Shown one piece after another: positions 8,605 to 51,563 of a DNA stretch of 64,000 nt; the first letter of the stretch is position 1, and each line of letters opens with the position of its first letter. Below the pieces are notes generated by a model, which was given only the letters and a program-made list of their open reading frames with translations, was not told where the DNA came from and ran no database searches. The position numbers and the translations under genes were made by a program. Origin of the DNA: an uncultured Acidobacteriota bacterium (GTDB lineage: Bacteria > Acidobacteriota > Vicinamibacteria > Vicinamibacterales > UBA2999); the NCBI GenBank assembly GCA_963751025.1, contig CAVVTC010000010.1, positions 74,121 to 138,120 on the forward strand, written 5' to 3'.

Positions 8605-8680
8605 TTCAATGTGTTAGTCACACACAGTCATCGGCTCATCATGTGTGAACCATCATTATGGGGTGTATAGGGGATATCGA

Positions 8681-8935: not shown

Positions 8936-9079
8936 ACACTCAGTTCGCTACGAGATACTGAGTACGACACAGGCGTCGTCATACACCAGCTAGAGCGTAT
9001 GTTCAGATTGAATAAACATTATTCGCCCTGAAGTATGGGATGCGAGAGATAAGGCATACATCGAGGAGATCGGAAAAAC

Positions 9080-10293: not shown

Positions 10294-10297
10294 GCCT

Positions 10298-11711: not shown

Positions 11712-11715
11712 CACG

Positions 11716-14319: not shown

Positions 14320-14338
14320 GAGAATGATAGTCATTATA
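14320..14338. promoter_or_regulatory. Fur-box-like site GAGAATGATAGTCATTATA.
   Basis: It matches the 19-bp Fur consensus GATAATGATAATCATTATC at 16 of 19 positions by my alignment. It lies in the AT-rich gap upstream of the ferritin-like gene. Confidence 0.6.
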
Positions 14339-14990: not shown

Positions 14991-15518
14991 TCATGTCTGG
15001 CTGATTTTGAGTAGTTTTTTGGATGCATTGATAGACTGTCCTGCCACGGTCGGGCACTTCTTGCAGGCTTTTCCCTTACGTCTGAAACGTTCGCAACACG
15101 TTTTGTTCACCCCTTCAACTCGCCCCCCTTTCACGATCGCTTGATGCCGTATGTCAGAACCGGGCCGCGCCTCTGTAAAAGGAATGATTTTACTGTCTTC
15201 CTGAGCATCACCACGTCTTTTGAGGCGCCTACGGACTTGACCGAGCGATGCGAGTAAGGCATCTGTCGCCGAGGCGTCCAACGACAAACTTTTTTGGCGG
15301 TACCAACCAATCCCATTTGCTCTTGTTAAATAACGTAACTCGACCCGAGCATGATGATCGGCATCATAAGTCACCGCGACTTCCAATACGGTATCATCCG
15401 CCGCTTGGGGAATTGTCGCGATAATTTCTTCATGCATCTCTCGAATCCTCATCGCTAGTATCCGCACAAATTCAGGTGTGATATGCGGCCCGACCTCCGA
15501 AGTCCCCATGGCCATCAA
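14991..15518 (-). CDS. Hypothetical protein with a Cys-rich basic C-terminal tail.
   Basis: This is an intact 175-aa ORF. The tail reads NKTCCERFRRKGKACKKCP (CC-x9-C-x2-C). I did not recognise a family. Confidence 0.55.
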   Translation of the reverse strand: MMAMGTSEVGPHITPEFVRILAMRIREMHEEIIATIPQAADDTVLEVAVTYDADHHARVELRYLTRANGIGWYRQKSLSLDASATDALLASLGQVRRRLKRRGDAQEDSKIIPFTEARPGSDIRHQAIVKGGRVEGVNKTCCERFRRKGKACKKCPTVAGQSINASKKLLKISQT

Positions 15519-15560: not shown

Positions 15561-15577
15561 ATGATTTTGAAAATCAT
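15561..15577. promoter_or_regulatory. Perfect 8-1-8 palindrome ATGATTTT-G-AAAATCAT (Fur-family-box-like).
   Basis: It lies ~45 nt upstream of the start of the 14991..15518 gene. Its shape resembles the 7-1-7 Fur/PerR/Zur boxes (TGATAATnATTATCA), but the inner bases differ. Confidence 0.4.
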
Positions 15578-15741
15578 TCTCAACTATAGGATGAGCTCAC
15601 CGGGATGTCAAGCTATAAGCTGAACGTTACTTGACCCTTTTTGCTTTCTGATCAACTCTCCGCTTCCGTTTACACCCAGGCTTTTTATTCAACGCCACAG
15701 TGCCCCTTGTCATGAGGTGTCAGAGGAAACAATTGGCGGCC

Positions 15742-16395
15742 TCAGTGCGAAGGTAAGGTGGCAAAGGCTTTTTCAACAACGCGCGAGATGTAATACCGCA
15801 CATCGTGCCAGGGCTGCGATGCGAGGATTGACACGGGACTATCAAGCCATTCGGCTTCCCATAAAATGCTTTTGGTGTCTATATCCACGAGCGCAAAAGA
15901 CGCGGCTACTATGATCGTATTATCCGTTTTGAGTTTTTGCGTATCCCATCGAGTAATGGTGCTGATGAGGAGGCTATCGGCACCCAGTAGGGCTCTGGCC
16001 TCTGTCGCAGGAAGTTGCAACATATCCTGGCTTTGTTGCGTCCCGACTCGGGTATCCACGACTTCTAGAGGGACGACGCGATAGGCCTTTTTGTACAGCG
16101 TGTGATTGATTTTCCGACGAAAGGACAGCGGCACATCGTTTGCGTCCTGTGGTCGAGAGGCCAGGGCCGCTTCGAATAGAGATTTAAGATAGGCGTGGGA
16201 TGGCGGCGCAGTGAGCGGTTTTCCAGTTTGATTCCGGATTGGCATGACTGCCACACGGGCCGGACGATGCTGGACATCGGTTGGGTTGCGCTGCGATGTC
16301 ACGACTCGTTGCGCACAGCCTGGCAGCGCAAGCAGCGTGAACGCGAGAATCCCTACGGCCAATGGGCGGTGCACAGCGGTACGGTACGGTATCAT
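15742..16395 (-). CDS. Putative lipoprotein.
   Basis: The start MIPYRTAVHRPLAVGILAFTLLALPGC has a lipobox (LPGC). It lies 4 nt downstream of the preceding gene. The family is uncertain. Confidence 0.6.
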   Translation of the reverse strand: MIPYRTAVHRPLAVGILAFTLLALPGCAQRVVTSQRNPTDVQHRPARVAVMPIRNQTGKPLTAPPSHAYLKSLFEAALASRPQDANDVPLSFRRKINHTLYKKAYRVVPLEVVDTRVGTQQSQDMLQLPATEARALLGADSLLISTITRWDTQKLKTDNTIIVAASFALVDIDTKSILWEAEWLDSPVSILASQPWHDVRYYISRVVEKAFATLPSH

Positions 16396-16399
16396 CGGT

Positions 16400-16948
16400 T
16401 TACTCCGCAGGTGCGCGCCGATATCGGATCGGCGGTTTGACAAACCACATCTCATACAGCGGCACAATCGTCAGGGTCAAAAAGCTAATCGTCAATAGGA
16501 GCTCACCGGCAATCAGGAGAATCGCACCGGCAGGCGACACGTATTTAATCACCCATGGCGACCAGATAAACAGAAACATGGCTGCGAATGACGTCAGCCA
16601 TACCGCCTGTTTGAACCGTTCAGGCCAAGATGTCAACTGAAACAAATGCCCGACCATCAGCAGCAACATCGCCATGTCGAAGGTGTGATCATGGGTTAGT
16701 TCAATAAGTTCTGAAAGACTCCGAGGAAAGTAGAGTTCGGCCGCTTCGTTTACCTGATTCGCCGTTCCCTCAGCGCCCCCGTAACGCCAGACCTTCGTTT
16801 GAGTCGTAAAACCGGTTTTATCCCAAATATTGAGAATGCCGACACCGAAGGCCATGAGCAGACTGATCAGAAAGAGCGATACGACCATTTTGCTGGAAAA
16901 CGACGCCCGAGACAGAGGCACATCGCCAAACATCCGAAATTGGCTCAT
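16400..16948 (-). CDS. Small polytopic membrane protein (about four TM helices) with conserved-looking His residues.
   Basis: MSQFRMFGDVPL..VVSLFLISLLMAFGVGIL.., ..THDHTFDMAMLLLMVGHLF.., ..AVWLTSFAAMFLFIWSPW.., ..AGAILLIAGELLLTISFLTLTIVPL... I did not recognise a family. Confidence 0.6.
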   Translation of the reverse strand: MSQFRMFGDVPLSRASFSSKMVVSLFLISLLMAFGVGILNIWDKTGFTTQTKVWRYGGAEGTANQVNEAAELYFPRSLSELIELTHDHTFDMAMLLLMVGHLFQLTSWPERFKQAVWLTSFAAMFLFIWSPWVIKYVSPAGAILLIAGELLLTISFLTLTIVPLYEMWFVKPPIRYRRAPAE

Positions 16949-17020
16949 GAGCAGCCCCCCTCTTGTCCCCCTAGACGACGCTTCCCCTCGCCGATGCATT
17001 GTGGCATCATCTTCTCCCTG

Positions 17021-18133
17021 TTAACTAAATGTGACGGTATGTTTGATGCCACTCGACATGCGGATTTCCAATCCCTCAGGTGATTCGGGACGCTCAATCA
17101 CCACCAGACCTTCGACGTCAGACAGATCTTCTAGCAAGGCGAAACCCTGTTCTGGTCCCAGCACGAAGGCTGCCGTTGAAATAGCATCCGCTTGCATGGC
17201 GGTCTTGGCCAGAACCGTGACACTGGCTACTTTCTCGACCGGATAGCCGGTTCTGGGGTCGATGAGATGGCCATAGCGTTTTCCCTCTTGCTCGAAATAG
17301 TTCTCGTAATTCCCAGAGGTTGCCACGCTTCGATTATGAACGCGAAGGGTAGCGAGGCTACGGTCGGGGACGTGGGGGTGTTGGATATCGACCAGCCACG
17401 CCGTCTCCTTCATCGCCGCACCCATGGCAAACAAATCTCCCCCAGCATTGACAATGGCGTGGTGGACGCCCTGGGCGAGGATTGCGGCCAGCGCCTTGTC
17501 GATGGCAAACCCTTTGGCGATGCCGCCAAAATCGAGTTCCACGCCCTCTCGGTCAAAGCGCATGGCACCTCGGGATGCATCTAAGTGGACGTGCCGATAG
17601 TTGACCAGAGGCAAGGTGGCTTGCAATTCCTCAACCGTCGGTATACGTCCCTCTCGTTGCACAAAACCCCAAAGCCGCATGAGCGGCAAAATCGTGATAT
17701 CCATGGCACCGTCGCTCTCGCGAGACATGTGCAAAGCAGCTTCGGTCACGGCCAGCATATCGGGATCGGTGCGAACCCACCCGCTGGCGGCAAGCCGATT
17801 GAGCCGGGAGAGTTCGCTCGCAGGCTGATAAATACTCATGCGCCGATCGACTTGGCGCAGCGCATGAAAGCCAGACGCCATGGCGCGCTCCGCGCTCTGC
17901 CGGTCTGCAGCAGCCACGGTGATTTCCGCCACAGTTCCCATGACATAGCGCGCCTGTCGAAATTCCCTGAGAGACTGACCACTGGCATCGCGTGACGGCA
18001 ACAGACCGAACCCACCGGCTAGCGCGGCCAACGCGCCGGTCCCAGCGCGGCGAAGCAGGACACGCCGCCCTAGCCTATTGGCCCGAGATACCCTGGGCAC
18101 GGGTATTCGCTCATTCATGTCTATACGCTCCAC
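17021..18133 (-). CDS. apbE: FAD:protein FMN transferase (ApbE family) with a Tat-type signal.
   Basis: RRVLLRRAGTGALAALAG, GGIAKGFAIDKA, ATSGNYENYF and GHLIDPRTGYP are all present. Confidence 0.9.
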   Translation of the reverse strand: MERIDMNERIPVPRVSRANRLGRRVLLRRAGTGALAALAGGFGLLPSRDASGQSLREFRQARYVMGTVAEITVAAADRQSAERAMASGFHALRQVDRRMSIYQPASELSRLNRLAASGWVRTDPDMLAVTEAALHMSRESDGAMDITILPLMRLWGFVQREGRIPTVEELQATLPLVNYRHVHLDASRGAMRFDREGVELDFGGIAKGFAIDKALAAILAQGVHHAIVNAGGDLFAMGAAMKETAWLVDIQHPHVPDRSLATLRVHNRSVATSGNYENYFEQEGKRYGHLIDPRTGYPVEKVASVTVLAKTAMQADAISTAAFVLGPEQGFALLEDLSDVEGLVVIERPESPEGLEIRMSSGIKHTVTFS

Positions 18134-18640
18134 TTAGGGTTTTTTAAAAACTTCTTCACAGATGGCCACCGCTTCCCGGACTCCCGCCGATACGGAATGG
18201 GCCGAGATCGTGGCCCCTGAGATATTTTTGATATCGCGCTGGACCTCGATGGGGTCCTGAATGGTCTTGTTGTGATATTGACGCAGAAATCGCTCTTCTT
18301 TGACCTCATAACCCCGCGGTTCTCGGTAAATCATGATGGCGACATCCTCGACACTGCAGTCGGGCTTGAGTCCGACGATGAACGTAATGGGTCGGTGCCG
18401 CCCTTTTTTATCCGTGATATAGGCATAGCCATCGATCTGGTCGTTGCGCCTGCCAACATAAAAGACAAACGTGTCGGCATCAAGCGGATGATCGGCCTTG
18501 TCGTGTACGCGTTGCTGCTGAGCCGGCGTCAATTCGACTTGCTCGGTACGTATGGTCTGTGCATGGGGCATCGCCACACGCAGAGCCTCCTCCTTGGTGA
18601 GATAGCGGATCGCCATGGCCGGCATGGCTGTCGTGCCCAT
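18134..18640 (-). CDS. FMN-binding-domain protein (NosR/RnfG-type), a likely ApbE substrate.
   Basis: LTKEEALRVAMPHA.., ..GYAYITDKKGRHRPITFIVGL.. and the C-terminal ..ISGATISAHSVSAGVREAV are present; the last contains an SGAT flavinylation-type motif. The stop abuts the apbE start. Confidence 0.8.
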   Translation of the reverse strand: MGTTAMPAMAIRYLTKEEALRVAMPHAQTIRTEQVELTPAQQQRVHDKADHPLDADTFVFYVGRRNDQIDGYAYITDKKGRHRPITFIVGLKPDCSVEDVAIMIYREPRGYEVKEERFLRQYHNKTIQDPIEVQRDIKNISGATISAHSVSAGVREAVAICEEVFKKP

Positions 18641-18706
18641 GATGAGTGACGACGCACAGGAGCACCGAGTACGGGGTTCGCATGCGCAAGCTCCTTCTCC
18701 ACAAAC

Positions 18707-19980
18707 TTAAAAGTAGCTGCTGAATTCAATGACAAATCCCGATTCTGGCAGATTGGCCGGATTGTCTCGGTCATCCATGTCAAAGAGCCATTCAAATTTG
18801 AGAACCGTTTCCGGCAGAGGGCGGAAATTGACCCCGAAGACGAGTCGTTTGCGGTCTCCGCCGGCAGTGGTGCGATCATCGTCGGTGTCGATTTCGTCAT
18901 AGCGCAACACCAGGTTGAAGGAGGGGTCATCACGGGCCAGGAACGTATTATTCAGGAAGTTGCAGGCCAGAAGCGATAGTTGATTTGCGCGTAAAAGCCT
19001 TCCATCTGTGTGGGTACCGGGACACGTTGCCACCCACGACACGATTGCTGAGTCCGGCGTCGAGGTCGGCCCTCGCGCCTTCGAACAAGAAGGTGAACGG
19101 ACCGATCTTGTACGTGATATCGAGGGCAAAGATGCTGATCGCCCGGTCATTAGTCGTCATCGTACATGCCGTAGTAATACGACAAACCGATGTCCAGTCC
19201 ATTCAAGCGCAGCCAGCCGATATTGCCGGGCAACAAGCCAAGACGCCCTGCAAAGGCTTTGTTATCGTTATTGTCACCCGGCGCTCCGAGGGAGCCACGC
19301 GCCTGTCTCAGACCAAAGCCATCGACAATGTTGTCATCGAGCCCGTTAATCAGATACATCTCATAGTTCACTTCGAGCTGATTGCCGAGGGCAAACGCCC
19401 CATGGAGGCCGAAGCCCACCTCGAACCAGGTGGTTGGAATGATGAACAAATCGACCAGCGGCCGCTCGGATAGCTCCCGTTCAGGGGGATCATGATGGGT
19501 GTTAAAGGCCCCACAGGGACCAGCACGACGCCGCCTCGAACATTGATGGCGGGATGGATCAACCAATCGAGATAGGCTTGTTCCAGCAGGACTTCACCCG
19601 GCTCTTTGGTGCCGAAATCCGGGCCTTTGAACGGGGTTCCACCAAATTCGAATTCGATCTCACTGGTGAACCGAAATCGCGGTGAAATTTCGGCGCCGAC
19701 AAAGAGAATCACTCGGCGTGTATTAAAATCTGAAGTTTGCTTTTCGAAATCGTGTAAAGGTGGTCTGGATATAGCCACCAATTAACGTTTTGGCAGCGAT
19801 TTCTTGCTCGGCGGCAAAATCCTGTTCCAGTGACCCCAGGCGTTCGCGCATCTCCTCCAGCTCATGTTGCAGCTGTTGTAGTTGCTCAACCGTAGCGGCT
19901 TCCCCGCCGGTTTGGGCTTGCCCAAATTGAGGTGCTGCGACCATGAGTATCCATATGAGCATCAACAATCGTACTTGCAC
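18707..19980 (-). pseudogene. Outer-membrane porin-like beta-barrel protein split over at least four frames.
   Basis: The N-terminus (ORF 19723..19980) has a signal peptide plus a coiled coil (EQLQQLQHELEEMRERLGSLEQ). Middle pieces are in ORFs 19368..19781 and 19150..19566. The C-terminus (18707..19150) ends ..FVIEFSSYF*, an aromatic terminal residue. Confidence 0.6.
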
Positions 19981-20062
19981 TAAATCGTACCTCCTGGTTG
20001 AACACCTCGCGAGTCATGAGCAAATCTTCTCTTAGCGATACACTCCCTATCTTGTGTCACGA

Positions 20063-21562
20063 TTACCTTCCAGCCGCTTCCGGCGGTGCTGTATCTCCAG
20101 GCGGGAACCAGCGATACAGATCCATCTGCCAGTGCGGATGATGGACGTACCGATCCCGCTCGAAATGCTGCACCAGATACGCATACGGACTTGTGGTGAC
20201 ACCCTGCACATCAGACGTGGCCAGGATGATGGCAGGGCGCTGTTGGGAGCTCTCCAGATCGTGTTGGGCAGTCGCGAGGTCGTGCCGCTGTCTGACATCA
20301 AAGGTTGGCGCATAAAAAGCAAACATACGCCGCGTGCCCCAGGCATAGAGCCGCGTCGAGTGAACGTCTCAAAATGTCTGGTGACGTACTGCAGCACTTG
20401 CAATTGGGGCGGTGGGGTCAGACGATGCACCAGGACAAGCCGGGTTGAGATGACTCCCAGCCCGAGAGCAGAAGGACGCAGGCCAGGCTGCCAACGGATG
20501 TCGAGAGGCGCTGCAGGCGTTCAAGCCCCAATGCTAAGATCATAAGAGCCACAGGAATCAGGGGGAGTAGGTGGCGCGGTTGATCCGCATGTTGCCCGAC
20601 GGCTAATCCACAGGCTGTAGGGCAAGATGTAAAGCAGTAAAAAGCCGGTGATTTTTCCCCAGCGTAAGTCACGGCAGCAGAGGCCAAAGGCAATCAGCAT
20701 CACCAAAGATGGCAGAAGCCGCAGGATGGAGGTATCCGTCCACCAGAATCCCAGGCTGTACGCCAAGAACCCCCAGGCGAACATCGTGGCGCGATAGGCC
20801 CATTGCTGGTGTTGCGGCATGGCGGACGATACAAGTGTGCCACCCCATTGAAAAAAGTGACCTGAGGTAAATGCCAGACCATCGTGCAATAGCTCAATAC
20901 CGCCGGTCAGCGCCAACTGTGGGGCCAACCACAGGCACACCCCAATGATGAGGCCATAACCGCCATCGCTGAGCGGACTCGTTGTGCAGTCGGGCTGCCA
21001 GTATAGATACAGCAGCAAAGCAGCCCAGGAGAGCAGTAACGGCGCGTAGGACAGCCGGACACCAAGCCCGAGACCCAATAACAAACTACCGAGAAACAGA
21101 TGATAGGGTTTGGCGTCCGAGGCGCAGGCGCGGTAGACCATGTAGGCGGCAGCCATCACGAAAAACAAGCCCGATGCATCGGAAAACGCTTTTTCCGCTT
21201 GCAGCCAGCAAGCCGGATTCACCACAAAAAGCAGCGCCGTGAGGATCGCGACACGAGTGATTTGACAATGTCGTGCCAGCGCATAAAGGGGCACGAGCGT
21301 GAGCGAACTCAACACCGCGCCAGGCAAAATGACGGCGGTCACCGGGTCACGGACGAGAAACCGACACAGCCAGCTCAGAAAGATGTAGACCGGATAGCCT
21401 GGAAAGTGCGGTTGGTAGTCGCTTGATATCGTAGCGGTCGAGGGCCAACGCAAAATCCACACTATCCCAGCCTTCCAGAACGGGGCTGAGGCCCATGCAA
21501 CCGGCTGCCCAGGCAAAGAACGTCAACAAAATAGACCGTGCGGTAGCGATAGTGACATGCAA
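20063..21562 (-). pseudogene. DUF2723/TMEM260-like GT-C-fold membrane glycosyltransferase, copy 1 (frame breaks).
   Basis: The N-terminal piece reads ..LEGWDSVDFALALDRYD.. and the main ORF 20521..21516 reads ..QPHFPGYPVYIFLSW..LVPLYALAR... The protein is polytopic. The C-terminal soluble piece in ORFs 20047..20430 and 20063..20326 is paralogous to the copy-2 tail. Confidence 0.6.
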
Positions 21563-21590
21563 GGTATGGTCTGCAGCATCGTTACGGTCC

Positions 21591-23126
21591 TCATCTCGCC
21601 TCTTCTCGTTGCGTATAATCCGCTTCCAACCGGTACAGGGTCAGCGTATGCAACCAGGGATGGAGGTAGCGATTGCGCGTAAAGGTGTGGATGGGGGTCA
21701 GCTGAAAATCCTGTTGCGAAAACCGCCGGCAAAGAAATCTGAAGTGATTAAAATGGTCTGGGCTGAGGGTGTAGAAATGGTAAGTGGCCGCTGAGATATG
21801 CGGCAAACTGCTACGCCAGGCGGATGCGTAGTACTGAAAAAAGCGGCGACTCCACCAACAATAGACCTGAGTGGTGCGGGGATTAAAATGCTCGGTGACG
21901 TACCGCACCAATTGCACCCGAGTGGGAGAAGTGGTGCGGTATTCGTGCACGAGCGGTAGGGTGATGAGACCGAGGGAGCCGATCAGGAGCATGCTGGTGA
22001 CATAGGCGGGCCAGAATCGCCTGGGTCCGCTGACCCAGCCCATACCGGCTATGTCGCAATCCGGCGGCAATGACCATCAGCAGCGGTGGTAGCAGCGGCA
22101 ACACGTGACGCAGGTTATTGGGATTTTGCGCGATATAGAGCCAGAGACCATACGGCACCAGCCACGCGACGAACACGCCTCGCTGATACGAGGGGCGCGA
22201 GACGACCGCCAACACGCGATCAGTGCCATGAGGCAAAGGCCGGTTGGGATGAGCCGTAGCCATGAGGTTCCCGGCCACCAAAAGCCCAATCCGTTGACCA
22301 CACATTCCAGATGTAGAGCTGGACGGCACGCCCGAGATAGTCGATGCGAGGTCACCAGGGTGTCGCCATAGTGATAGACCGTGCCCACGGTATTCATCTT
22401 TGCTGCCAGAGACGATATCCGACAGGCTGACCTTGAGCAGGAATGGCACCAGCCATAAGCCGATCCCGACAACCATACCGTTCAGAGCCGTGGTGACGGG
22501 GAGACGATCGGCACGCCATCGGCATAGGACGTACACCAGTAGGCCCCAGGCAAACACAAACGGGATGTAGGCCAGACGTGCGCCGAGCATAATGCCAAAG
22601 ATCAGGCTACCCCAGTAAAGAGGCCGTAGCGGCAGGCGGGATCGGCTGATCGGCCGACCCGTCCGTTCCCGGTGTTGGGCCAGGGCGGTATAGCCCAGGG
22701 CTGCGGCAGCCACGAGAAAAAAGAGGCCACAGGTATCGGAGTAGGCTTTGCTCGATTCGAGCCAAAGCAACGGGTTGACTATAAACAGCAGGGCGGTGAG
22801 CGTGGCCGTCGTCTCGCCCATCATGCGATAGGCGAGTTGATAAAGTGGATATACCGTCAGGCTGCCAAATAGGGCGGCCGTGAGCGTGAGTGCCTCAACC
22901 TGGTTCCCAACGACCTGAAGGAACAGCCAACTGACGCGAGATAAACCGGATAGCCAGGAAAATGCGGACGGTAGTTCACGAGATCATAGTGTTCCAAAGC
23001 CCAGGCAAAATGAACGCTATCCACTCCTTCAAGCGCCGTGCTATGAAAGGTAAACCGACTCACCAGACACACGAGCGTTAGCGCAAGGGGTTTCATATAG
23101 AGTCTCTGTTGATCCCAAGTAAACAC
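21591..23126 (-). pseudogene. DUF2723/TMEM260-like GT-C-fold membrane glycosyltransferase, copy 2 (frame breaks).
   Basis: The N-terminus in ORF 22857..23126 reads ..ALEGVDSVHFAWALEHYDLVNYRPHFPGYPVYLAS... The body is in ORFs 21883..22824 and 22077..22472, and the tail in 21591..22070. Confidence 0.6.
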
Positions 23127-23143
23127 GTTGGTCTATCCTATAC

Positions 23144-24527
23144 CTATTGACGAGATGCGTGAAGACCGGAGACGTGACATTGCTCCAGGTTTTCCGCTGC
23201 CGCCAAGCCCATGTCGATGGCATGATCCATGTTGCCGTACTGAAAGCGGCCTTGACGACCAATGGTTTGAAGATTGGTAAAGCGGCTGAGATAGGCGAGA
23301 ATCGCCTCGCGATGTTCTCGATAGCTAAGGGTGTAGATCGGATATTCGTGCGCTTCGCGAGTGACAAATCCCCCGCCGACCTCGTTCATATGCAGCAGCC
23401 CCAGCTCTGCAAGACTGTTGGCAACCCGTTCGATGAGTTGATCCGGGTCTGCGTGCCAGATGGCGTCGCCCTGATCACACGTAATCTCGCGCACATACGG
23501 AGGTCCATTCTGAGGGTGCCAAGTAGGGGCTAAAGCTTTTGGGTTCGCTCAGGCGATTAAACGGATACCGGTCATCGGGGACGTACATCCAGTGATCGCC
23601 CGTCAGCCATTCGCGTTTGATCAGCACATTGACCAGGACCAGGCTGCGATACCACAACCCGTCAATCGCCTGTGTCAGATCGTTGTGGCACTACACATAC
23701 GAGCCAGATGCGGCAATGGAATGGTCGAGATGACCCATCGACTTCAGTTCGACCCTCACGGCCTGAGACTGGTTGTCCAGCGTACGGCGACCACCCGATC
23801 CGACCGCGTCTCAAGGCGTCCGTGACCAACGCGTTCAGCGCGATCGAGCCCCCACATGTTTGAACGGCTCCGCCAATCGGTCGGCGATGCTACCGATACC
23901 TTCCAAGGGATAGTAAAAGGTCGAGTCGCATAGGTGCGAGGTGTCTGACGTGCCGGCCATAGCAGGGCTTGTAAGACATGCCAGAGCGTCAACTGATAGA
24001 TGCGTTCAGCGGCCCAATCTGCCGAGATATCAGTTGGGGGGAGCCCCACAACTTGGTCGTATAGTGGCGGAAATGGGTCTCATACAAAACCTGCCCAAAG
24101 CGATTGACAATCCAACTCTCGAAATGCCTATCGGGCGGCGTTTGCCAATGCCACCGGAGGCGACTGTGCACAAAACTTCCCAGGGCAGCAAAATTGTGGT
24201 ATAACGACGTACTGGCAAACAGGCTCTTGGCTTTGAGCGGATAGTCGAGATATTTGCCGCCTTGAAAATACGGCTCTGTCGCTGACACACCTGGAGGTCG
24301 TCCCCGAGCAGCTCTTGCACCAGTTGGAGCACCCGACTACCGGGAGGTGCCAGGAGCCGATGTGGACCGATATCGAAGGTGAATCCCTGTTGAGAAATGC
24401 TCTTGGCGAGCCCACCGACCAGGTGATCACGTTCGAAGATGTTGACGTCGTAACCCCGTGCCACTAGTCCCCGGGCAGCACTGAGACCCGCAAGTCCTGC
24501 ACCTAAAATCGCGATTCGTGGTGCCAT
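23144..24527 (-). pseudogene. FAD-dependent oxidoreductase (amine-oxidase/UDP-galactopyranose-mutase-like fold), paralogue 1, with many frame breaks.
   Basis: MAPRIAILGAGLAGLSAARGL..FERDHLVGGLAKS (GxGxxG). Fragments occur in ORFs 24030..24587, 23989..24288, 23756..24049, 23475..23657 and 23144..23494. The tail ..LQTIGRQGRFQYGNMDHAIDMG matches paralogue 2. Confidence 0.7.
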
Positions 24528-24649
24528 ACCTGATTCCTGGACCTCTCTCCCCAGTGGGCTATCCGTAGTCGCTATAGCGTCGTGCACTGGCGATTTGCCA
24601 GGTTTTTTTCAGTAATCCAGCCGCACCGCGTAGATTGGCCATGGCCACC

Positions 24650-26017
24650 TCAAACTGAGGTCATCCAGCGCAATTGCTCGGCGAGATATGTCGGCCGCAA
24701 ATAAAAGCGCCGATTGGCTCGGACGAGCGCCCGTTTGAGATCTTTGGCGGTCAGACCCTCGGCAATAAACAGCGGTTCACCCCCGGCAGAGGCCGTCTTA
24801 AACGCTGCCAGGGCACGGGCATCGCTGGTGTGCACACGTGGCAAGCGGGCATAAACTTCGGTGCCGGGGAAGGGGACGAGGACATTAAACAGAGCGATGT
24901 TCGGATTCAGCTCGATGGCGAAGTCAATCGTGCGTTCGATAGACGCGAGGGTCTCCCCTGGAAGACCAAACAGAAACGAAGCGAGCGTTTTGAATCCGAG
25001 TTCACGGCTCCACTTTAACGCCCGGCGGGCTTGGTCCAGCGTGGCGCCTTTTTTCATCACTTGCAGCATGTGCGCATCACCTGATTCCACCCCAAAATTG
25101 AGCGCCACGCACCCGGCGCGTTTCATCAGTGGCCAGGAGTTCCGGGCGTGACGGTGTCGACGCGTGAAAAGGCAAACCAGGTGACACCGACATGTTTTTC
25201 GAGGAGCAGCTCGCAAAACTCGCGCGTCCGTTCCATGTCCCAGGTGAAGGTGTCATCATTGAAAATGACGTGTTCGATGCCATAGGCTGGACCAGGTGTT
25301 CGATCTCCGACAGCATATAGGCCGGACTGTGACCGCGGAATTTGTTACCCAGCGTACGCCACGATTCGCAGAAGGTGCACCGAGCCGGACAACCGCGGCT
25401 GCTGATGAGGTTGGCGGTGCGTTTGCCAAGTTCCAGGTGCGCAGGCGACTTGTACGAGGCAAAACCAGCGAGCTCGCGGGCCGGAAAGGGGATGGTGTCG
25501 ATCTCCGCCCGGAGCGCTCGGCGTGGCGTGAGCATTACCTGATGGTGATAGCGGTAGCCGATGCCTTTAATGCCAGCGAGGTGCAGCGGATCGAGCCCAT
25601 GCGACGCAATCGTGGCGGCCAGCTCGACAATGGTCTCCTCGCCTTCTCCCACGACGAGCACGTCAAACTCGGGATGGTGTTGCAAAATTTCACGAGGCAC
25701 TGACGAGGCGTGTATGCCGCCCAACACTGTCACGACGTCCAAATGGTGTTTGATCTGTTGCGCCAACTGCTGCGCCACAATGAAGTTGGGGGTGGCGCAG
25801 CCAATCCCGACTAGCGCCGGATTTTCTGTTGTAGCCGCTGTATCAGGGCTTGATCACTCAGGGCCTGAATCTCTGGGTCCAGAAACACGACATCATGCCC
25901 GGCCTGTTGCAGGGCGGCGGCAATGTATCCCAGTCCCAGGGGGAAATAGCGGGGCGCGCTTTTCCGCATGGGGCCAAAAATCTGTAGATACGGTGCTTTA
26001 ATCAGGGCGATTTTCAC
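24650..26017 (-). pseudogene. B12-binding-domain radical SAM protein (frame breaks).
   Basis: GTG start MKIALIKAPY..PLGLGYIAAALQQAGHDV. Also present are ..VVGEGEETIVEL.., SSRGCPARCTFCES (Cx3Cx2C) and ..ALNFGVESGD... The gene is split over ORFs 25811..26017, 25077..25778 and 24650..25216. Confidence 0.8.
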
Positions 26018-26162
26018 GTCTGCTACCTCTCATGTTAGCCGGCGTAGGGATCAGGTGGTGGCGGGGATCTGACCGTCACCATCACCCCGCCGCCTGGTGG
26101 TGGCACTCACATGCCGTCATCATCGTCAATGCGGGCAGCGAGGATGTCAGCCAGCCGAATCG

Positions 26163-26763
26163 TCATCTGCAATGCCGTTGAGGTGCAAAATCGAGCAGTG
26201 AACCGGGCAGGTTGGGTGTCAGATCGTCCCGGGCCACGATCGTACCATCCATGCTCTCCTCCGGCGCCATGCCATGGAAAGGGAGGGGACCCTCGATGGT
26301 GACCGTGGTCGAGTAGGTCGGCGAATCGCCTGGTAAAATAAGGTTGGCCGCGTAGTGCCAGCCCTCAGCGACGCCAACATGCGGCCGCAAACGCGTCTCC
26401 AAACGCTCGCCGGTGGTGTCATTAACGACGGTGAGTTGCACCATTAAATACGGCACAAACTCGCCTTCGACGTGGCCGCCTAGGTGCTGGCCGGTGTACC
26501 GCAGTTGCGCTTCGACGTGGAGTTGGGCGTCCGCTTTGGGTAGACTGGGCTGGGAAGTGGTTTCGATCTGATCGGGTGGGGCCACCTCGATGACTGCCCG
26601 CACGGCGCCGTCGGCAATTTCTTCTTCCATGAGCAACACTTCATTAAAGTTGTCCGGTAGTTGGTTAATACTGCTCGTGTCACCTTCTGTGGAAGCTGTC
26701 CTCCAACTCCCCATCTCCGGCACAACTGCTTATCAGGAGAGCCTGCCACAGCGCCAGCAACAT
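26163..26763 (-). pseudogene. P19/FetP/Tp34-like periplasmic iron(copper)-binding lipoprotein. There is one frame break after the signal peptide.
   Basis: ATG 26763 gives MLLALWQALLISSCAGDGE (lipobox). After a shift, ORF 26163..26723 reads ..DAQLHVEAQLRY..GEFVPYLMVQLTVVNDTTGERLETRLRPHVGVAEGWHYAANLILPG..YSTTVTIEGP. This parallels the HLEADIHA..WxPYLxVxY..GxHYGxN layout of P19-family proteins as I recall it. Confidence 0.6.
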
Positions 26764-26903
26764 GACGACAGTAGATAGATTCTGCAGAGATCGAATCCAA
26801 TAAGGTCCGATGAGTCACGGTTGAACTTTCCCTCTATTCATCTTCCCTTTCTCCAGCAGCTGGCGAGGAGATCGGCGGTTTTGCCAAATTCGCGATCAAT
26901 ACC

Positions 26904-28855
26904 TTAGGGAGCGAGTGCGTTGAGTCGCCCGAGGAAATCTTCCCCAAGCGTGGTGATGTAAGTTCTGACGATGGCGTCCGCCGCGGTACGTGCAGTGGCA
27001 GCGGCCGTCCGATCCTCGACTGGCAATTGCCGTGATAAGGCCATTGAACGCCTCGGTCAGATCGAGTTTGTCATTCTTGCCGTTGCCGTCATTCACGGTA
27101 TCGCCCAAGATAATGGCGAGATCGTCAATCGTGATGTCATGAACAAGCGCGCTTCTTCGGCTTCAATCAAGCGCCCGTTGTCGCTGTACGTCATTGGGTA
27201 CTCCGGGTAGCAGAAAATTCGCGTTGATCTCGTTGAGTTCCCGAATCGTGCCATTGGCAAAGGCGAGGCTAAACTCTCCAAGGACCGTGGCGACATCCGC
27301 GGTGATGAGCGCTTCCACGGGTAACTCCAGAATGGTCTGAATGGTGCATTGCCCGTAGGATTGTCTGCGCTGACATGCTGTCGAGCATACGATAGTAGGC
27401 CACACCTCGATCGGTTGACCTCCGCCTCACTCAGATTGCCTGCCAGCGACGTTATCCAACACACCATCGAGTTCCCGTAACACCGCGATATAGATACCCC
27501 GGTACAGGGAAAACGGATGATCTGCTGTTGCACGCCAATCGCGTAAAATCGTCATCCGCCCCGCCACTATCACCATCATTGAGATCGTCATCAATGGCCT
27601 GTTGTCCACGTTCAAATGCCGCCGAGACCATCTGGTCCAGCCTGGGTTCCAGGGTGAGGACTGCGAACGTGGTAGTGTCTACGCCGAGTCGGCTGCGGAT
27701 GAAAGCGCATCGCCTCGAGCCAGCCCAATGGTCGTCCGATGGGCATCGAGAACTCGCAACCGACTCTCTCGCCCCACGGTATGGCCGACAAGGCGCGAAA
27801 ATACATAAACGCTGCGTCCCAGCTATGGTAGACGCCTTCTGTATTGACTGACGGTCTTGGCTTCGAAAGTCGTCGCATTGACGGCCTGCCGCAACATTGG
27901 ACAGAGTGGCTTCGAAAAAGACCCTCAACAAGGTTGTTGACAAAATCTGCGTGGCCGCGTCAGGCGCAATTCGGTTGCTCAGATCCGAGAAGGCCTGCAC
28001 GATATCCGCATCGAGACAGAGGGGTGTCGAGCGTGCTCATCGATCTGCTCGGGTGAATACCTGAAGAGACTGAAAATACTGGTCGGCGATGGCTGCCACA
28101 GGCCGTGGATTTTGACGGCGTAGGGACTCAATCGACTGCTGGGCCAGCAGGCGCCGGTCGGCATCGACGGTTTGTGTACGTGCATTAAAGGTGCCATCCA
28201 GGACATTTTCGCGACGCGAGTCGCAATGGGTCCCGTCAAGCGTGTTAGGGGTTGTAGGTCGATATGACTGATACCGCTCAGCGGTAAGGTCAACAGCATG
28301 ATCGAGATACGACCCGACTTCGGCGTCACCAGCAATATCGCTATGTTTAGCAAGCACCAGTGGGAGGCGCGATCCGCAGATGATGTCGTACGCATCGCTC
28401 AGAGGGATCCCAGGGAAAGCGTTATATTGCTGCCGTAGTGCCATCCTTGCTGCAAGCCCGACCAGCGGCGCGAGACCGAAGGTCAGGGTCTCGTTAATCG
28501 TCGTATTGTTTATGGTCAGTGTAACCCGCAAAAACGGGACGAATTCCCCATTCACCCTTGCCCCTAGATTCGGGGCGTCACGGCGATAGCGAATGTGCAG
28601 GGCCAGTGCGCATCTGCGTTTTGAACATGGTCCGGCGAACCATCCCCATCGCTATCTGCAGTGTTCAGCTGGCCATTAAGCACCCCCGGATGCAAGCTGT
28701 CGGCCGAAGTCAGTTCAAGCGTTGCCTGGAGCGCAGCGCCCGACAAAAAAAACTCTCCTAGCATGATACGATCTTGGGCCCGCGCCTGAGGGAGGAACGG
28801 ACTCAGGTGCCACAAGAGCACGAGCAGGCTGGTGATCAGACGTGGGTGCCATCAT
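26904..28855 (-). pseudogene. Long secreted protein with an N-terminal P19-like domain, a helical domain and a Ca-binding-like DxNxDGxxD motif. It is heavily frame-broken.
   Basis: Pieces read ..NADAHLALHIRY..GEFVPFLRVTLTINNTTINETLTFGLAPLVGL(QQ)GWHYGSNITL (frame-hopping). Later pieces read ..VQAFSDLSNRIAPDAATQIL.., ..YHSWDAAFMYFRAL.., ..DTVNDGNGKNDKLDLTEAFNGL.., ending ..TYITTLGEDFLGRLNALAP*. At least six frame changes are needed to join them. Confidence 0.45.
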
Positions 28856-28894
28856 CGGCTCCGTCTTTTCCTTGCAACTTCTTTCCTCCTTGAT

Positions 28895-30310
28895 TCATTG
28901 AACGGCCTTGGCCTCCAGCAAGGTTTTCTCCACTCGGAGATCGTAGATATCCGCTTTGGTGCCCTGTCCTCGCAGGCAGCGGGCGGCCGCGAAGCCCATT
29001 TCCATCGCCGTGTCGGCGAAGATGTACCGAAACGTGCCCTGCCGACCACAGGTAATGAGGTTGTCGTAGCGGTTGACACGTCATAGAGCATTTGTCGGTG
29101 CGCTTTGAATTCGCGTCGATAGATGGGATAGGCATGACGGGCACGCGTTGAAAAACAATCGATCACGTGCCTTTGAATATCGATGCCAAGCGTCTAGAGG
29201 TCTTTGATGCAGCGCTCCAACAGGTTCGCGTCCGCAGCGTTCCAGATGTCGTCTCCGACCTGGCACGGAATTTCCAGCATGAGAGAGGTTTGACCGTTCG
29301 GGGCATTGAACGGACTCCGTTGCTTCGGCTCCTGGATACGCGTCATGAGGTACTTCTTGTTCTGACACGTAGGTCCAGGTATTGCCACTAATCTCGGGTT
29401 GATCGACTAGGAGATTCAAAAACCGCAGGCTGCGAAAGCGGAGCTGCGCCGAGGCCGCCAACGCCTCGGGAGCAACACTCGGGGTGAGCATGCGGACCAG
29501 CTCCGGCAGCGGCAAGGTGGAAATGAGCGCATCGCACTCAGAGATTCTCGCTGGCCACATAGTCAAATTCCACCCGGTGACGCGGTCTTGCCGCACGTGC
29601 ACTCGACGAACCCGGGCCGGAGAGAGGATGTGACCGCCCTGTTGCTCGACGACCTCGCCAATGCGTTCAAAAAGCTGACCGATGCCTTTTTTGGGATAGT
29701 AATATTTCTTGGCATAGGTCCGAGGCGTCCCCCTGCCGATGCCGAACAAACGCCAAAACGCGTCACCTAAATTGAGTAGCGAGATGCGCTGAGCGGCCCA
29801 ATCAGACGAGAGTTGTTGTGGTGCAAGGCCCCATAATTTCTCGGTATACGGCCCAAAAAACGTGCTGTACAAATGACGTCCAAAGCGGTTCACGACCCAC
29901 TCTTCGAACGACTGATCCGAACGCCTTCCGAGGCGATGCATCGCATTGTGCATCAGGTAGTCGACAAAAGCGTAGGTACCAAATCGCAAACCCGTGGTGC
30001 TGAAGACTTCACGCGCAGATAAAGGATAGGTAAATTGTTGTCCGCCCAGCATAATGACACTCTTACGGGTCTGGACGAGCAAGTCTTGCTGCATGAGCGC
30101 GCACACCTTATCGACGAGCTGCTGATCGGGAGAGATAAACCGGTGCCCCCCTAGATCGAAGCGAAAGCCTCGATATTCGGTGGTGCTGGATAAGCCACCG
30201 AGCTTGGTATCCTGTTCGAGCACCGTCACGTTGTCACCCTGAGTCGTGAGCTCCCAAGCCGCGCTGAGCCCACACGGCCCGCCGCCTAAAATCACCACGG
30301 TTTTTGCCAT
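28895..30310 (-). pseudogene. FAD-dependent oxidoreductase, paralogue 2. The C-terminal third is frame-broken.
   Basis: MAKTVVILGGGPCGLSAAWEL..LEQDTKLGGLS (GxGxxG) is intact for ~330 aa in ORF 29081..30310. The protein then continues in ORF 29194..29388 and in the frame of 28852..29166 (..AHAYPIYRREFKAHRQMLYD.. then ..CGRQGTFRYIFADTAMEMG..). Confidence 0.75.
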
Positions 30311-30383
30311 GCCCTAATCTCCCTCAAACCCACTGGAGGTGGTGTTCTGCCTGCCGCTAACGCCACCTCCAGGAAGGCATTGG

Positions 30384-31879
30384 CTACGGCTGCGCCACTG
30401 CAGCTTCGAGCGCACCCGCGATGACGATCTTGCCGTCGGACTGAATAGCGATCCCACGAGCCGTTTCTGCGGTTCCAGCGGTGACGAGATTGATCGATGC
30501 CACCCCGCCCACGCCAAAAGTCGGGTCGAGGATGCCATCGGTGGTCAAACGGGCGACAACCATGTGACTGTCGCCGTTTTCTGTGAGGTGACCTGCCGCG
30601 TAAAGGCGATCCGAGGCGTCGAAAGCAACGCTCCAAAACCGGTTGTCCCCGGCAGGCGAGAGGGGCACTACTTGAGCCACATCGGCGCCCCCCGGCAGAG
30701 GCAACAAGACAAGCGTTGCCTGGCCGTCAAGCCTTCCGTGACGCTATAGCCGACGGCGGCCGCCCAGTTGCCACTCGGCGCCAGAGCCAGGCCATAAAAA
30801 TTCTCATCCGTGCCGCCGAAATCGTAGGTTTTCATCCCATCTTGATCAAAATCGCTCGCCAGGGTGCCATCCGCATTGAGGACGACGACAAGGGCATCGC
30901 CATTGCCAGCCACCGGCGTCGCCGTGCCGACGATGAGGACGCGATCGTCGGGGAGCACGGCGACATTGCGCCCGCGATCGTTTTCCCCAATGAAGTCAAG
31001 GACCACGGTCCCCCCCACACCCCAGGTGGGATCGAGTCGGCCGTCTGGTGTCAGGCGCATCGACACCAGATCGACCGTACCGGTCGCCGCGCTGCGGCCA
31101 TAGCCGGCCGTGACATAGTGCCCCGAGGACTGCTGGGCGAGTCCGTAGGCCTCGACCATCCCCCAGGGTTGCGTCACCGGGTCGTCCGGCATAAAGGGGT
31201 TTTCGTTTGCCACGCCTTCGAACCCAAACGCCACGTCGGGCGTGCCGTCATCATGGAGCCGCAGCAGCACGGCGCGATTGGCCGTCTGGGTTCCCGTTGC
31301 GGTGGGCTGCGCGGCGTAGCCTGCGGCCACGATATGGCCATCGGCCAACACGGTGCCATTGCGGACGTTGTCGTTGAGGTTGCCGACGTTGAGCGTATAG
31401 ATGCCCTCAGTCGCAAACGTGGTATCGAGCGCACCGTCAGCGGTGAGACGAATCACGAGGCGATCGCGATCCACCCGCGTCTCCGGGCCCTTGGCGGCAG
31501 CAAAGACGAGCAGGCGGTCTTGAGCATCGCTTGCCAGGTTCCATACGGTATCTCCCACCCCACCTGCATCAGGGCCAAAATCGAACTGGCGCACACCGTT
31601 TTCGCCAAATGAAGGGTCGATGACCCCATTCGGATCAAGCCGTACCAGGGCGATATTGATGTTGGGTCCCGCCGGCACCACACAGAGGGGCGCTTGGGCA
31701 CCGGCATGACCGACATGCAATAAGGCGACTCCCCACACAGCCCTCAACAGCCACCCGATCTGTCGCCAACGGGCCGGAGCCTCGAACCGATCACATCGTT
31801 CATTGCGTTCATTCGCGTCCCTCCTGACCTGAGCCATAGCCGGATCGGCAACCAGCCACCTGCGGCGATGTCGACTCAT
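30384..31879 (-). pseudogene. Secreted delta-60-repeat beta-propeller-like protein with one frame break near ~30690.
   Basis: The periodic motif DG-x-(L/I)D-x-x-FG-x-x-G recurs (LDPNGVIDPSFGENG, TADGALDTTFATEG, HDDGTPDVAFGFEG, TPDGRLDPTWGVGG, NADGTLASDFDQDG, TTDGILDPTFGVGG). There is a signal-like N-terminus. The tail is in ORF 30384..30707. Confidence 0.7.
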
Positions 31880-31896
31880 GGCATATCTCTACGAAA

Positions 31897-31915
31897 GATT
31901 ATGAGAATCATTATC
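31897..31915. promoter_or_regulatory. Fur-box-like site GATTATGAGAATCATTATC.
   Basis: It matches the Fur consensus at 17 of 19 positions by my alignment. It lies 18-36 nt upstream of the ATG (31879) of the first gene of the long minus-strand array. Confidence 0.65.
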
Positions 31916-32140
31916 ATATTTAAGCGTAAAAGGCTTATCTAGCCTTTGAAAACCCACTTGTAAGGGGTGTTAGAGGTAGTGTCGCATGGCAAGGCGTACG
32001 AGTAGGAATCATGGGGCGAGACAGGCGCCAGCGGCAGTAAAATGCAACGCTCGGGTTTTTCTCAGCCGGGGCTCTGTGTTACGCTTGTATCGCGATAGGG
32101 TGAAAAACGAGACAGTGGCCCTGCTCGCAAAGAAGGTATT

Positions 32141-34006
32141 ATGAACCGAGACACGTTCAAACAGCGGCTGGCAAACGGTCCATTGCTCCTAGATGGGGCG
32201 ATGGGGACGTTGTTATACGGCAAAGGCATCTCTATCGACCAGTGTTTTGATGCGCTCAACCGCCGTGAGCCCCAGGCAGTGGCCAGCATTTATCGCGACT
32301 ACATCGATGCGGGTGCCGACGTGCTGGAGACCAATACCTTTGCTTCCAATCGCTTTAAGTTAGCGGAGTACGGGTTGCAAAATGACGTGCTGGAGCTGAA
32401 TACCGCCGCGGTTGCCATTGCTCGACGGGTCATTGCGGCCTCGTTTAAGCCCATGCTGTTGGCCGGGGCGATTGGTCCGTTAGGGGTGCGTCTTGCACCG
32501 CTTGGGCGGGTGCGTCGCCCGAAGCCGAAGCCGCTTTCCGCGAGCAAATCGAGGCATTGGTGAACGCCGAACCCAAAGGCGTGGACTTACTCATTCTGGA
32601 GACGATGGCCGATCTCAAAGAGGTCGAAATTGCCGTGGACGTGGCGCGACCTGGTTGCTCCCGCATCTACCCATCGTGGCCCAAATGGCCTTTACCCACG
32701 ACGATCGAACCTTCATCGGTCACAGCCCGGATGAGGCCGCACGAACGCTTTCGGGATTTGACGTCGACATGATCGGGGTTAACTGCAGCAGTGGTCCGGC
32801 GCAGAGTGTTACGTCTGATCAGCATGATGAAAGCAGTGGTGCCGGACATGCCCATTGCCGCGGTGCCCAATGCGGGATGGCCCGAGCAAACCAAAGGCGG
32901 CCGGGTGATGTATGCCGCCACGCCAGCATATTTTGCCAGATATACCCGGGCATTCCGTGAAGTGGGAGCCGGCTTGATTGGCGGTTGCTGTGGCACCACC
33001 GACATGCACATCGCGGCCATGCGCCAGGCTCTGGACACACCTGGAGAAAATCCCATCCCCATGCCGCGCGTCAAGCTGACTGCAGCGCGATAGCCACCCC
33101 CACGGAATGGTCGATCAGCCCACCCAACTGGCACAATACTTCAACGAAGGCACGTTTGTCGTGACGGTGGAAATGAGTCCGCCCAAAGGCGTGGGGGCCG
33201 AACCTCTGCTGCAGAGTGCGCACATGCTGAAAGAGGCCGGAGCGAATCATCCTCAATCTGGCCGATAGCCCACTGGCCCGCATGCGGATGAGCGCCTGGG
33301 CCGCAGCCTATTTGGTGCAACGGGAAGTGGGACTGGAAACCATTCTTCACTTTCCCACCCGGGGGCGCAATTTGCTGCGCATTCAGGGCGATCTCTTAGC
33401 GGCCCATGCCATGGGTATCCGCAATCTGTTCGTCACAATGGGAGACCCGACTCGCATCGGCGACTTTCCGGAGGCCATGGATAGCTATGACATCGTGCCG
33501 ACAGGGCTGATGCAACTCATTACCCAACAATTCAATGCCGGGGTAGATAAAGCGGGCACACCGCCTCGATCAGGCAACGTCTTTTGTAGGGGGGTGCGCG
33601 CTCAACTTAACCCCCAAGGACGTCGAGCGCGAGATGACCTTATTGCGCAAGAAAGTCCGCAATGGTGCCGGTTTTGCCCTCACCCAACCCGTGTTTGATG
33701 CGGCGGCAGCCCGCGCTTTTATCGACACCTACGAAACGCGCTATGAGGAGCCAATGATCCCGATCCTCGCAGGCATTAAACTGTTACACAACGGTCGCAA
33801 TGCCGATTTTCTACACAACGAAGTCCCGGGCATGGTCATACCGGAGGCATATCGCCAGCGCATGCATGCGGCCGATCGACCCCCAGCAGACCGGCGTCCA
33901 AATTGCGCAGGAACTCATGGAGGAGATAAAACCATTTGTCCAGGGCGTGTATTTGATGTCCAATTTTGGCCGCTATGACCTCGTCGCGGATGTCATCGGT
34001 AGATAA
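32141..34006 (+). pseudogene. Bifunctional homocysteine S-methyltransferase / 5,10-methylenetetrahydrofolate reductase (YitJ-like) with many frame breaks.
   Basis: The HMT part has LLDGAMGT, LETNTFASN, IGVNCSSGP and GGCCGTTDMHI. The MTHFR part has VTVEMSPPKG, ILHFPTRGRN and AGFALTQPVFD. The gene is spread over ORFs 32141..32563, 32557..32772, 32493..32960, 32791..33093, 33282..33698, 33634..33978 and 33800..34006. Confidence 0.8.
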
Positions 34007-48083: not shown

Positions 48084-48145
48084 TGGCGATGTGCAGTGGT
48101 GGTTCCGTCTTGTCAGCGATGATGCGAGAACATAGGGAGAAACAC

Positions 48146-51560: not shown

Positions 51561-51563
51561 ATC

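Follow-up and report, generated by a model that had tools for sequence, protein, structure and literature searches.

A putatively Fur-regulated envelope array in an uncultured Acidobacteriota bacterium joins a self-standing four-gene flavinylation unit to an Entotheonella-lineage block

The window analysed here, 64,000 nucleotides of contig CAVVTC010000010.1 from an uncultured Acidobacteriota bacterium (positions 74,121 to 138,120 of the forward strand), carries on its minus strand, between 15742 and 31915, 13 co-directional genes (G1-G13) headed by a match to the binding site of the ferric uptake regulator (Fur). Their products include P19-like iron proteins, a flavinylation pair, radical S-adenosylmethionine (SAM) and flavin adenine dinucleotide (FAD) enzymes, and GT-C glycosyltransferases. 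The question raised by the locus, posed in a preliminary description of it, is whether the array is a novel iron-responsive envelope system or several unrelated operons. The cluster proved to be real and syntenic, but it can be taken neither as a single indivisible system nor as genes packed at random, with a block of four genes for a porin, an FMN_bind protein, an ApbE flavin transferase and an Aq_1264_TM membrane protein standing alone in other phyla. The array is composite, consisting of an ancient self-standing four-gene unit with an Entotheonella-specific block in front of it. That the whole is a Fur-repressed envelope cluster for iron acquisition, brought together in the Entotheonella (Tectimicrobiota) lineage, is the reading preferred here, at a probability of about 0.5.

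Read directly, the minus strand between about 19 and 31.9 kb is cut into pieces of 50-300 codons rather than clean open reading frames (ORFs), with about 40 single-base frameshifts or stops breaking G1-G9 while G10-G13 are intact. A codon-usage model trained on the intact ORFs of the window, with a frame-aware Viterbi path, recovered 13 gene-sized minus-strand chains, and Pfam and NCBIfam hidden Markov model searches with the frame-corrected translations and with intact orthologues bore out the earlier gene list entry by entry. G1 (30387-31879, at least 2 frameshifts) encodes an exported DUF5122 or delta-60-repeat beta-propeller (Pfam 5.5e-32; TIGR02608 4e-68), and G2 (28898-30310, about 3 frame defects) a cytoplasmic FAD oxidoreductase of the Amino_oxidase/GLF-like type, which scores 415 bits where NCBIfam NF005547 (PRK07208.1-3, 'hypothetical protein') requires 380. 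G3 (26904-28884, at least 10 frame defects) encodes an exported fusion of a P19 domain with an orphan region of about 430 aa at the C-terminus that is predicted to be all-alpha; PF10634 is recorded on its intact orthologues of 654-660 aa, the window copy being too broken for a Pfam match. The product of G4 (26110-26787, 2 frame defects) is a P19/FetP-like lipoprotein (PF10634, 8e-15). There follow G5 (24562-26029, 4-5 frame defects), a class-B radical SAM enzyme with B12-binding and Radical_SAM domains that falls under all NCBIfam equivalog cut-offs (top match BchE, 215 bits against a cut-off of 481 bits), and G6 (23180-24527, at least 4 frame defects), a second FAD oxidoreductase of the Amino_oxidase family that is a paralogue of G2 with about 40% identity when intact orthologues are compared. 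Two GT-C glycosyltransferases of the PMT_2/TMEM260-like (DUF2723) type complete this proximal block, G7 (21597-23132, about 5 frame defects) lying just under the Pfam cut-off and its paralogue G8 (20066-21595, about 4 frame defects) over it.

The four-gene unit opens with G9 (18710-19989, about 4 frame defects), an outer-membrane porin of the Porin_O_P-like type whose match to that family is just under the cut-off and which is homologous to six porin-like genes elsewhere (E 1e-20 to 5e-32). Downstream of it, G10 (18137-18655) encodes a periplasmic RnfG-like FMN_bind protein (PF04205) with a signal peptide and an SGAT motif, G11 (17021-18133) an ApbE flavin transferase (PF02424, 3.8e-89) with an N-terminal RR-containing export signal, and G12 (16400-16948) a four-helix inner-membrane protein of family PF27139, Aq_1264_TM. 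The last gene of the array, G13 (15742-16395), encodes a GNA1162-like lipoprotein. Sequence-based prediction places the products of G1, G3, G4, G9, G10, G11 and G13 among exported proteins, those of G7, G8 and G12 as polytopic in the membrane and those of G2, G5 and G6 in the cytoplasm. The narrow gaps reported earlier (about 0-145 nt) have their counterpart in intact relatives, in which the spacing runs from 4-nt overlaps to about 166 nt.

Is this then a recognisable flavinylation system? By the features set out by Meheust et al. (2021), the array encodes an exported ApbE together with an FMN_bind substrate that has a signal peptide and an [S/T]GA[T/S] motif. In G10 the flavinylation motif reads DIKNISGATIS and accompanies an AMA-type signal peptide; the motif is kept in 7 of 8 homologues, one having AGAT, and in homologues of other lineages it takes the family form D-I-[RK]-N-[IV]-SGATIS, again with signal peptides. 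The N-terminal segment of G11, RRVLLRRAGTGALAALAGG, was read as an export signal. A catalogued membrane partner is lacking, with G12 matching none of the NQR/RNF, Nos, Eet, NapH-like, MsrQ-like, PepSY-like, DsbD-like or DUF4405 Pfam families. The PF27139 assignment of G12 is precomputed for a database protein 100% identical to it and for all 96 profile hits. Its monomer structure model is confident (mean predicted local distance difference test score (pLDDT) 86, predicted template modelling score 0.79) and has four transmembrane helices and a short helix in the first loop; a Foldseek comparison with solved structures gave nothing significant (best E about 1) and nothing cytochrome-like. Across the family Gly58 in a YRG loop and His86 and His88 in a THxH motif early in helix 2 are invariant, with near-invariant PWLIRY and PLYEMW motifs after THxH. 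By the positive-inside rule both termini of G12 would be cytoplasmic, such that the YRG loop, THxH and PWLIRY would face the periplasm.

The two P19-family proteins both match FetP, P19 and FtrA structures. G4 matches FetP (3nrp) at 2e-10; residues equivalent to His44, Glu46 and His97 are present in it, while His stands in the place of Met90 and Glu in that of Asp94. His44, Glu46, Met90 and His97, together with the acidic residue at 94, are what we take to be the copper and iron ligands of FetP. The P19 domain of G3 is more divergent (3nrp at E 3e-6), with the Glu46 position being Ala in some orthologues and Glu in another. No Pfam match (E up to 10) or Protein Data Bank match was obtained for the C-terminal 430 aa or so of G3, and the structure model of the protein is unusable (mean pLDDT 37.7). 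An imelysin/EfeO-like identity for this helical tail was considered and rejected (hhalign probability 0.2%, with no Pfam match at that threshold).

Whether these genes belong together can be judged from their order elsewhere. The preliminary description had raised the prospect that homologous genomes might have them scattered; instead, five contigs (L001 and L011-L014, with 62-90% protein identity) have their genes in the order propeller, FAD, P19 fusion, P19, radical SAM, FAD, GT-C, GT-C, and in L001 the array continues with porin, FMN_bind, ApbE, Aq_1264_TM and lipoprotein. Adjacent reading frames in these relatives overlap by 4 nt at G2/G3 and G7/G8. Just seven relatives of the P19 fusion are in the database, one of them annotated as Candidatus Entotheonella sp. 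(Tectimicrobiota), and the proximal block G1-G8 was seen only in Entotheonella-type contigs, always in the same order. A metagenome scan for an independent radical SAM block outside this lineage recovered only Entotheonella-type orthologues, the next relatives being no more than 33% identical and in unrelated contexts. One irregularity was found in L001 (4754-6909), in which G6 is truncated to 145 aa and a single GT-C gene joins the N-terminus of G7 (63 aa) to the body of G8, reflecting either a deletion or paralogue recombination or else misassembly in a contig of 3x coverage.

The four-gene unit has a much wider distribution. A full HMMER search recovered 453 representative clusters of PF27139, and the neighbourhoods of distant members include six loci of other lineages in which a porin-like gene, FMN_bind and Aq_1264_TM occur together, with ApbE adjacent in five of the six; some of the records are annotated as Gemmatimonadota, Chlorobi, Kapabacteria or Bacteroidota. 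Scanning the species representatives of GTDB gave 80 loci, nearly all from Gemmatimonadales; of those having enough flank, 69 of 69 have the porin and FMN_bind genes in colinear order, and 69 of 70 likewise have ApbE. In the other-lineage loci FMN_bind and Aq_1264_TM share 4-11 nt of coding sequence, and two members of the family are Aq_1264_TM-ApbE fusions. No homologue of P19, FTR1, FUR, ferritin, radical SAM, FAD or GT-C proteins was found within 8 kb of the Gemmatimonadales units. An iron importer next to these operons was rejected, the neighbours being housekeeping genes (histidine kinase, EngB-like GTPase, ClpX, trigger factor, HisF).

Its promoter region and its neighbours tie this unit to iron. 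Fur-consensus-like 19-mers at up to 6 mismatches lie in 28 of 69 Gemmatimonadales regions upstream of the porin gene as against 4 of 690 background windows, and 43 of the 69 loci have before their porin gene, at up to 2 mismatches, the shared core TGAAAATCATTCTC, an inverted repeat of Fur type with a 7-1-7 layout (TGAAAAT-C-ATTCTC(A)). The 52 sites of this core in 906 kb all fall within 19 kb of porin-upstream windows, at -104 to -15 from the estimated start. A candidate Fur target of the operon is TGAAAATCATTCTCA. Individual loci of other lineages show the same association. In L005 a 17/19 E. coli-type Fur box stands directly before the porin gene and a second Fur-like box before an adjacent cytochrome c-FTR1 fusion (5745-7712, 655 aa), with a FUR gene between the boxes; the unit there comprises porin, FMN_bind and Aq_1264_TM, with no ApbE within 10 kb. 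L008 (4309-9731) has FUR, then a Tricorn/PD40 beta-propeller, then the four-gene unit, while ferritin adjoins the unit in L006 and L009, and L010 has a one-mismatch copy of the TGAAAATCATTCTC core before the porin gene. The propeller of L008 echoes the window, where a different propeller (DUF5122) comes first behind the Fur box. From these sequence patterns the four-gene unit is best described as an autonomous operon headed by a predicted Fur box and iron-linked in its own right.

How is the array in the window itself regulated? Its head carries the Fur box GATTATGAGAATCATTATC (31897-31915), matching the consensus used, GATAATGATAATCATTATC, at 17 of 19 positions; its 7-1-7 core, TGAGAAT-C-ATTATCA (31902-31916), is shared with the Gemmatimonadales operator. 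A sigma-70-like promoter on the minus strand (TAGATA, 17 nt spacer, TATGAT; 31913-31941), recognised by consensus match only, overlaps the box with its -10-like hexamer, and the position of the box upstream of the G1 orthologue is kept in L011. The 17/19 match had been noted before and stands, while the first ATG (31879), 18-36 nt upstream of which it had been placed, is probably not the start of G1. Comparison with an intact orthologue points to ATG 31812, which has an AGGAGG ribosome-binding site and encodes MNAMNDVIGSRLRP, aligning with MRTTSEVIAQYRIRL of the orthologue, with one further frameshift downstream. With the true start probably at 31812 the box would lie about 85-103 nt upstream of it. 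Beyond the Fur box, on its upstream side, the window (31950-31985) and L011 (2400-2440) share a conserved stretch of about 25 nt, TTACAAGTGGGTTTTCAAAGGCT, which may be a second regulatory site; a sigma-54 activator is encoded further upstream in L011.

Within the array, searches allowing 5 mismatches to the 19-mer or 3 to the 14-mer core found no Fur box before G4, G5 or G9, and a Fur-like site before G9 is absent from both the window and L001. Since the unit has lost its usual Fur box before G9 and the only box heads G1, the 13 genes probably form a single iron-responsive unit read from the G1 promoter. A different and distinctly less probable arrangement is a head-to-tail series of operons, in which only G1 or G1-G4 would respond to Fur, G5-G8 (perhaps with G2) would be an unrelated envelope glycan or lipid operon, and G9-G13 would be a third unit with its own unrecognised promoter. 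It gains from the independence of the porin, FMN_bind, four-helix and ApbE block in other phyla, from the radical SAM, FAD and GT-C families having no known iron role, and from the widest gaps falling at block borders (G3-G4, about 110-166 nt; G8-G9, about 115-123 nt). A succession of separate operons is difficult to square with a block order that is fixed in every relative recovered or with the 4-nt overlaps at G2/G3 and G7/G8, and the loss of the typical Fur-type box before G9 is hard to explain unless the unit is regulated from upstream. Likewise, a simple scan detected no excess over chance of internal promoter-like or terminator-like sites in the array.

The preliminary description recognised no Ftr1/FetM permease in the window, and this holds: no ORF of the 64 kb matches PF03239, a scan of membrane proteins for REGLE-type motifs was also negative, and no such permease was found in the syntenic relatives L001 and L011-L014. 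The array thus has the PF10634 periplasmic protein of P19/FetP-FTR1 systems and lacks their adjacent FTR1/FetM-type permease. With Campylobacter cFtr1-P19, E. coli FetMP and Bordetella/Brucella FtrABCD it shares a periplasmic P19-fold protein, with several of the presumed metal ligands kept in G4, and predicted Fur-type regulation. Classical P19 systems are expected to have a redox accessory, which in FtrABCD is FtrB and FtrD. The window differs from them in that the defining permease is absent from its 64 kb and in that, in place of a cupredoxin, polyferredoxin or thioredoxin, its redox partner would be a protein carrying covalently bound flavin.

A closer parallel is provided by the 260 P19 clusters with an FMN-binding gene described by Meheust et al. 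(2021), which are mostly Gram-positive and were discussed together with FTR1, with a redox role in iron uptake being proposed (PMC8238504). These likewise combine PF10634 P19 with FMN_bind and ApbE, and their iron role was proposed from genomics only. The array differs in having no FTR1, in its Gram-negative-type organism with a dedicated porin, in its two P19 paralogues, one of them fused to the orphan helical domain of 430 aa, in its Aq_1264_TM membrane partner and in the radical SAM, FAD and GT-C genes embedded in it. The earlier view that the combination is not a described architecture thus fails for the pairing of P19 with an FMN-binding protein, already published (PMC8238504), while the unit of porin and Aq_1264_TM was not found in the literature searched. 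In the library searched nothing was found on Aq_1264, or on a porin together with FMN_bind and ApbE, which is not proof of non-publication.

Membrane partners of flavinylated proteins offer a further comparison. Subsequent work by the same group described DUF4405/FezC membrane cytochromes in apbE clusters without a known membrane partner (PMC10979944), and Caulobacter CC_3059-3063 is another Fur-regulated cluster with ApbE (PMC3751524). G12 resembles the PepSY-like, MsrQ-like and DUF4405/FezC cytochromes, those of the Caulobacter cluster included, in being a small inner-membrane protein encoded by apbE and a flavinylated periplasmic protein, in its predicted iron-responsive regulation and in its conserved transmembrane histidines (PMC8238504; PMC10979944; PMC3751524). 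However, Aq_1264_TM has four helices with two invariant histidines arranged as an HxH, as against four histidines and two haem sites in the published cytochromes, and it has no sequence or significant fold match to any of them. Nor have the published PepSY-like, MsrQ-like and DUF4405 systems been described with a dedicated porin.

In the mechanism that we propose, the porin G9 would pass an iron species across the outer membrane and ApbE (G11) would join flavin mononucleotide (FMN) covalently to the periplasmic FMN_bind protein G10, which would perform one-electron redox chemistry on iron, most likely the reduction of Fe(III). Aq_1264_TM (G12) would be the inner-membrane partner, most likely linking the flavoprotein to the membrane electron pool. 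The P19-family proteins G3 and G4 may bind periplasmic iron and pass it to an importer encoded outside the window, and G2 and G5-G8 would make a glycan or lipid modification and attach it to envelope components, their presumed link to iron being the weakest step.

Several points weigh against reading the array as an iron acquisition cluster. Nine of its 13 genes are frame-broken in the window copy, and the importer is absent from the window while the Gemmatimonadales operons have housekeeping neighbours only, so that uptake is something we infer. Aq_1264_TM has only two invariant histidines, the HxH, and no recognisable cofactor motif, and an electron-transfer role for it would be guesswork. 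Outside the Entotheonella lineage the four-gene unit is never accompanied by P19, radical SAM, FAD or GT-C genes, and the functional tie of the proximal block to the unit could be mere co-location. The promoter and terminator scan argues only weakly for a single transcript, and every mechanistic step is a deduction from the letters of the genome.

A further possibility is that the four-gene unit is not for iron uptake, being instead a Fur-regulated flavin-sparing or oxidative-stress redox system, or that Aq_1264_TM supplies FAD to ApbE or is itself the iron permease. The Aq_1264_TM-ApbE fusions fit an ApbE partner or flavin supplier, and the YRG loop, THxH and PWLIRY motifs would be on the periplasmic side. 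The lack of a permease beside the unit in the 80 Gemmatimonadales loci would fit G12 as the permease, and its model has no cytochrome-like match among solved structures. Such roles are nonetheless judged unlikely. The overlapping FMN_bind and Aq_1264_TM frames point to a complex of fixed stoichiometry, the membrane partners characterised by experiment in the flavinylation papers considered are all electron carriers (PMC8238504; PMC10979944), and L005 encodes a separate FTR1 permease beside the unit.

The broken frames of G1-G9 raise the question of whether the system is still in use in this genome. A decaying pseudogene array, in which the frameshifts would be real and the system out of use, would account for about 40 events within G1-G9 while G10-G13 are intact and the regions at 5-19 kb and 40-64 kb are clean. 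The breaks, however, are not confined to the array. They span 19000-39700 and 2900-4600 of the window on both strands at about one per 300-600 nt, and their density is equal in opposite-strand and housekeeping genes, including, on the opposite strand, a MetH/MTHFR-like gene (32141-34000), a quinone oxidoreductase and a glycosyltransferase and, at 2.9-4.6 kb, panC (4332-5190) and a major facilitator superfamily (MFS) transporter. Set against L001, a contig 85% identical, the defects are single-base indels that stand alone, unlinked to homopolymers and with no larger deletions, identity to orthologues inside each frame segment is maintained at 70-95%, and the orthologues in four other contigs are intact. 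The database protein identical to G12 comes from the 836 kb source contig, whose length suggests a long-read assembly. Given that the defects reach flanking housekeeping genes and that the orthologues are intact, patchy consensus error from uneven polishing of such an assembly is the likelier cause, and decay of the array is improbable. Stop-codon reassignment was rejected as an explanation for the broken ORFs, the breaks being frame changes against intact orthologues.

In the preferred reading of an iron-linked array, the surroundings of the cluster agree with its head, the Fur box there being accompanied by three further Fur-like boxes nearby. The window has 4 Fur-consensus matches at up to 3 mismatches against 0.01 expected. 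The first of the three boxes (15563-15581), with a perfect TGAAAATCATTCTC core, lies just past the end of the array by the strong promoter-like site of a minus-strand ORF (14991-15518). This ORF encodes 175 aa with no Pfam match and has a near-consensus promoter-like sequence (TTGACA, 17 nt spacer, TATAGT) directly before the core, which makes it a candidate new member of the Fur regulon as judged from its promoter. A 16/19 box (14320-14338) lies upstream of a plus-strand ferritin-like gene (14454-14912), two genes beyond G13, and another 16/19 box (8589-8607) upstream of a plus-strand operon (9040-14237) encoding an imelysin, a di-haem oxidoreductase, an imelysin and an HTTM protein. The second imelysin gene is split by a frameshift (11557-12315 and 12032-12871), and a look-up by exact sequence found no database record for an imelysin of the window. 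This Fur-box-headed operon, comparable to EfeUOB-type systems, belongs to the same apparent iron island as the array and differs from it in protein families, the helical tail of G3 having no detectable relation to imelysin.

Elsewhere in the window an intact IS605-family OrfB/TnpB gene lies at 645-1835 (OrfB_IS605 with a Cas12f1-like TNB domain). The G+C content rises from about 55% to about 65% near 48 kb, a step that may mark either the edge of a compositional island or a chimeric assembly, and the high-GC part (48000-64000) encodes RecA, a thiolase, an extracytoplasmic function sigma factor, a transketolase-like protein, an MFS-HEAT fusion and Maf.

The idea that flavinylation is linked to iron assimilation is recent and draws nearly all its support from genomics, and to it the present finding adds a compact candidate flavinylation unit of four genes, which has a porin of its own and a membrane partner from a new family. 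The predicted regulation of the unit is unusually clear, its 7-1-7 operator being specific to the promoter region of the unit across many species. Taken further, and tentatively, the porin, FMN_bind, Aq_1264_TM and ApbE operon might be an unrecognised, widespread, Fur-regulated and TonB-independent iron route in which the porin would feed a flavinylated periplasmic reductase and Aq_1264_TM would be a new class of transmembrane electron carrier or a permease replacing FTR1, with Entotheonella adding P19 chaperones and an envelope-glycosylation module. The occurrence of the unit in lineages that include cultivable relatives (Gemmatimonadota, Flavobacteriia) makes it testable without the uncultured Entotheonella. 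For PF27139 the association provides a lead to function, and for the P19 family it suggests how these proteins might work without an adjacent FTR1 permease.

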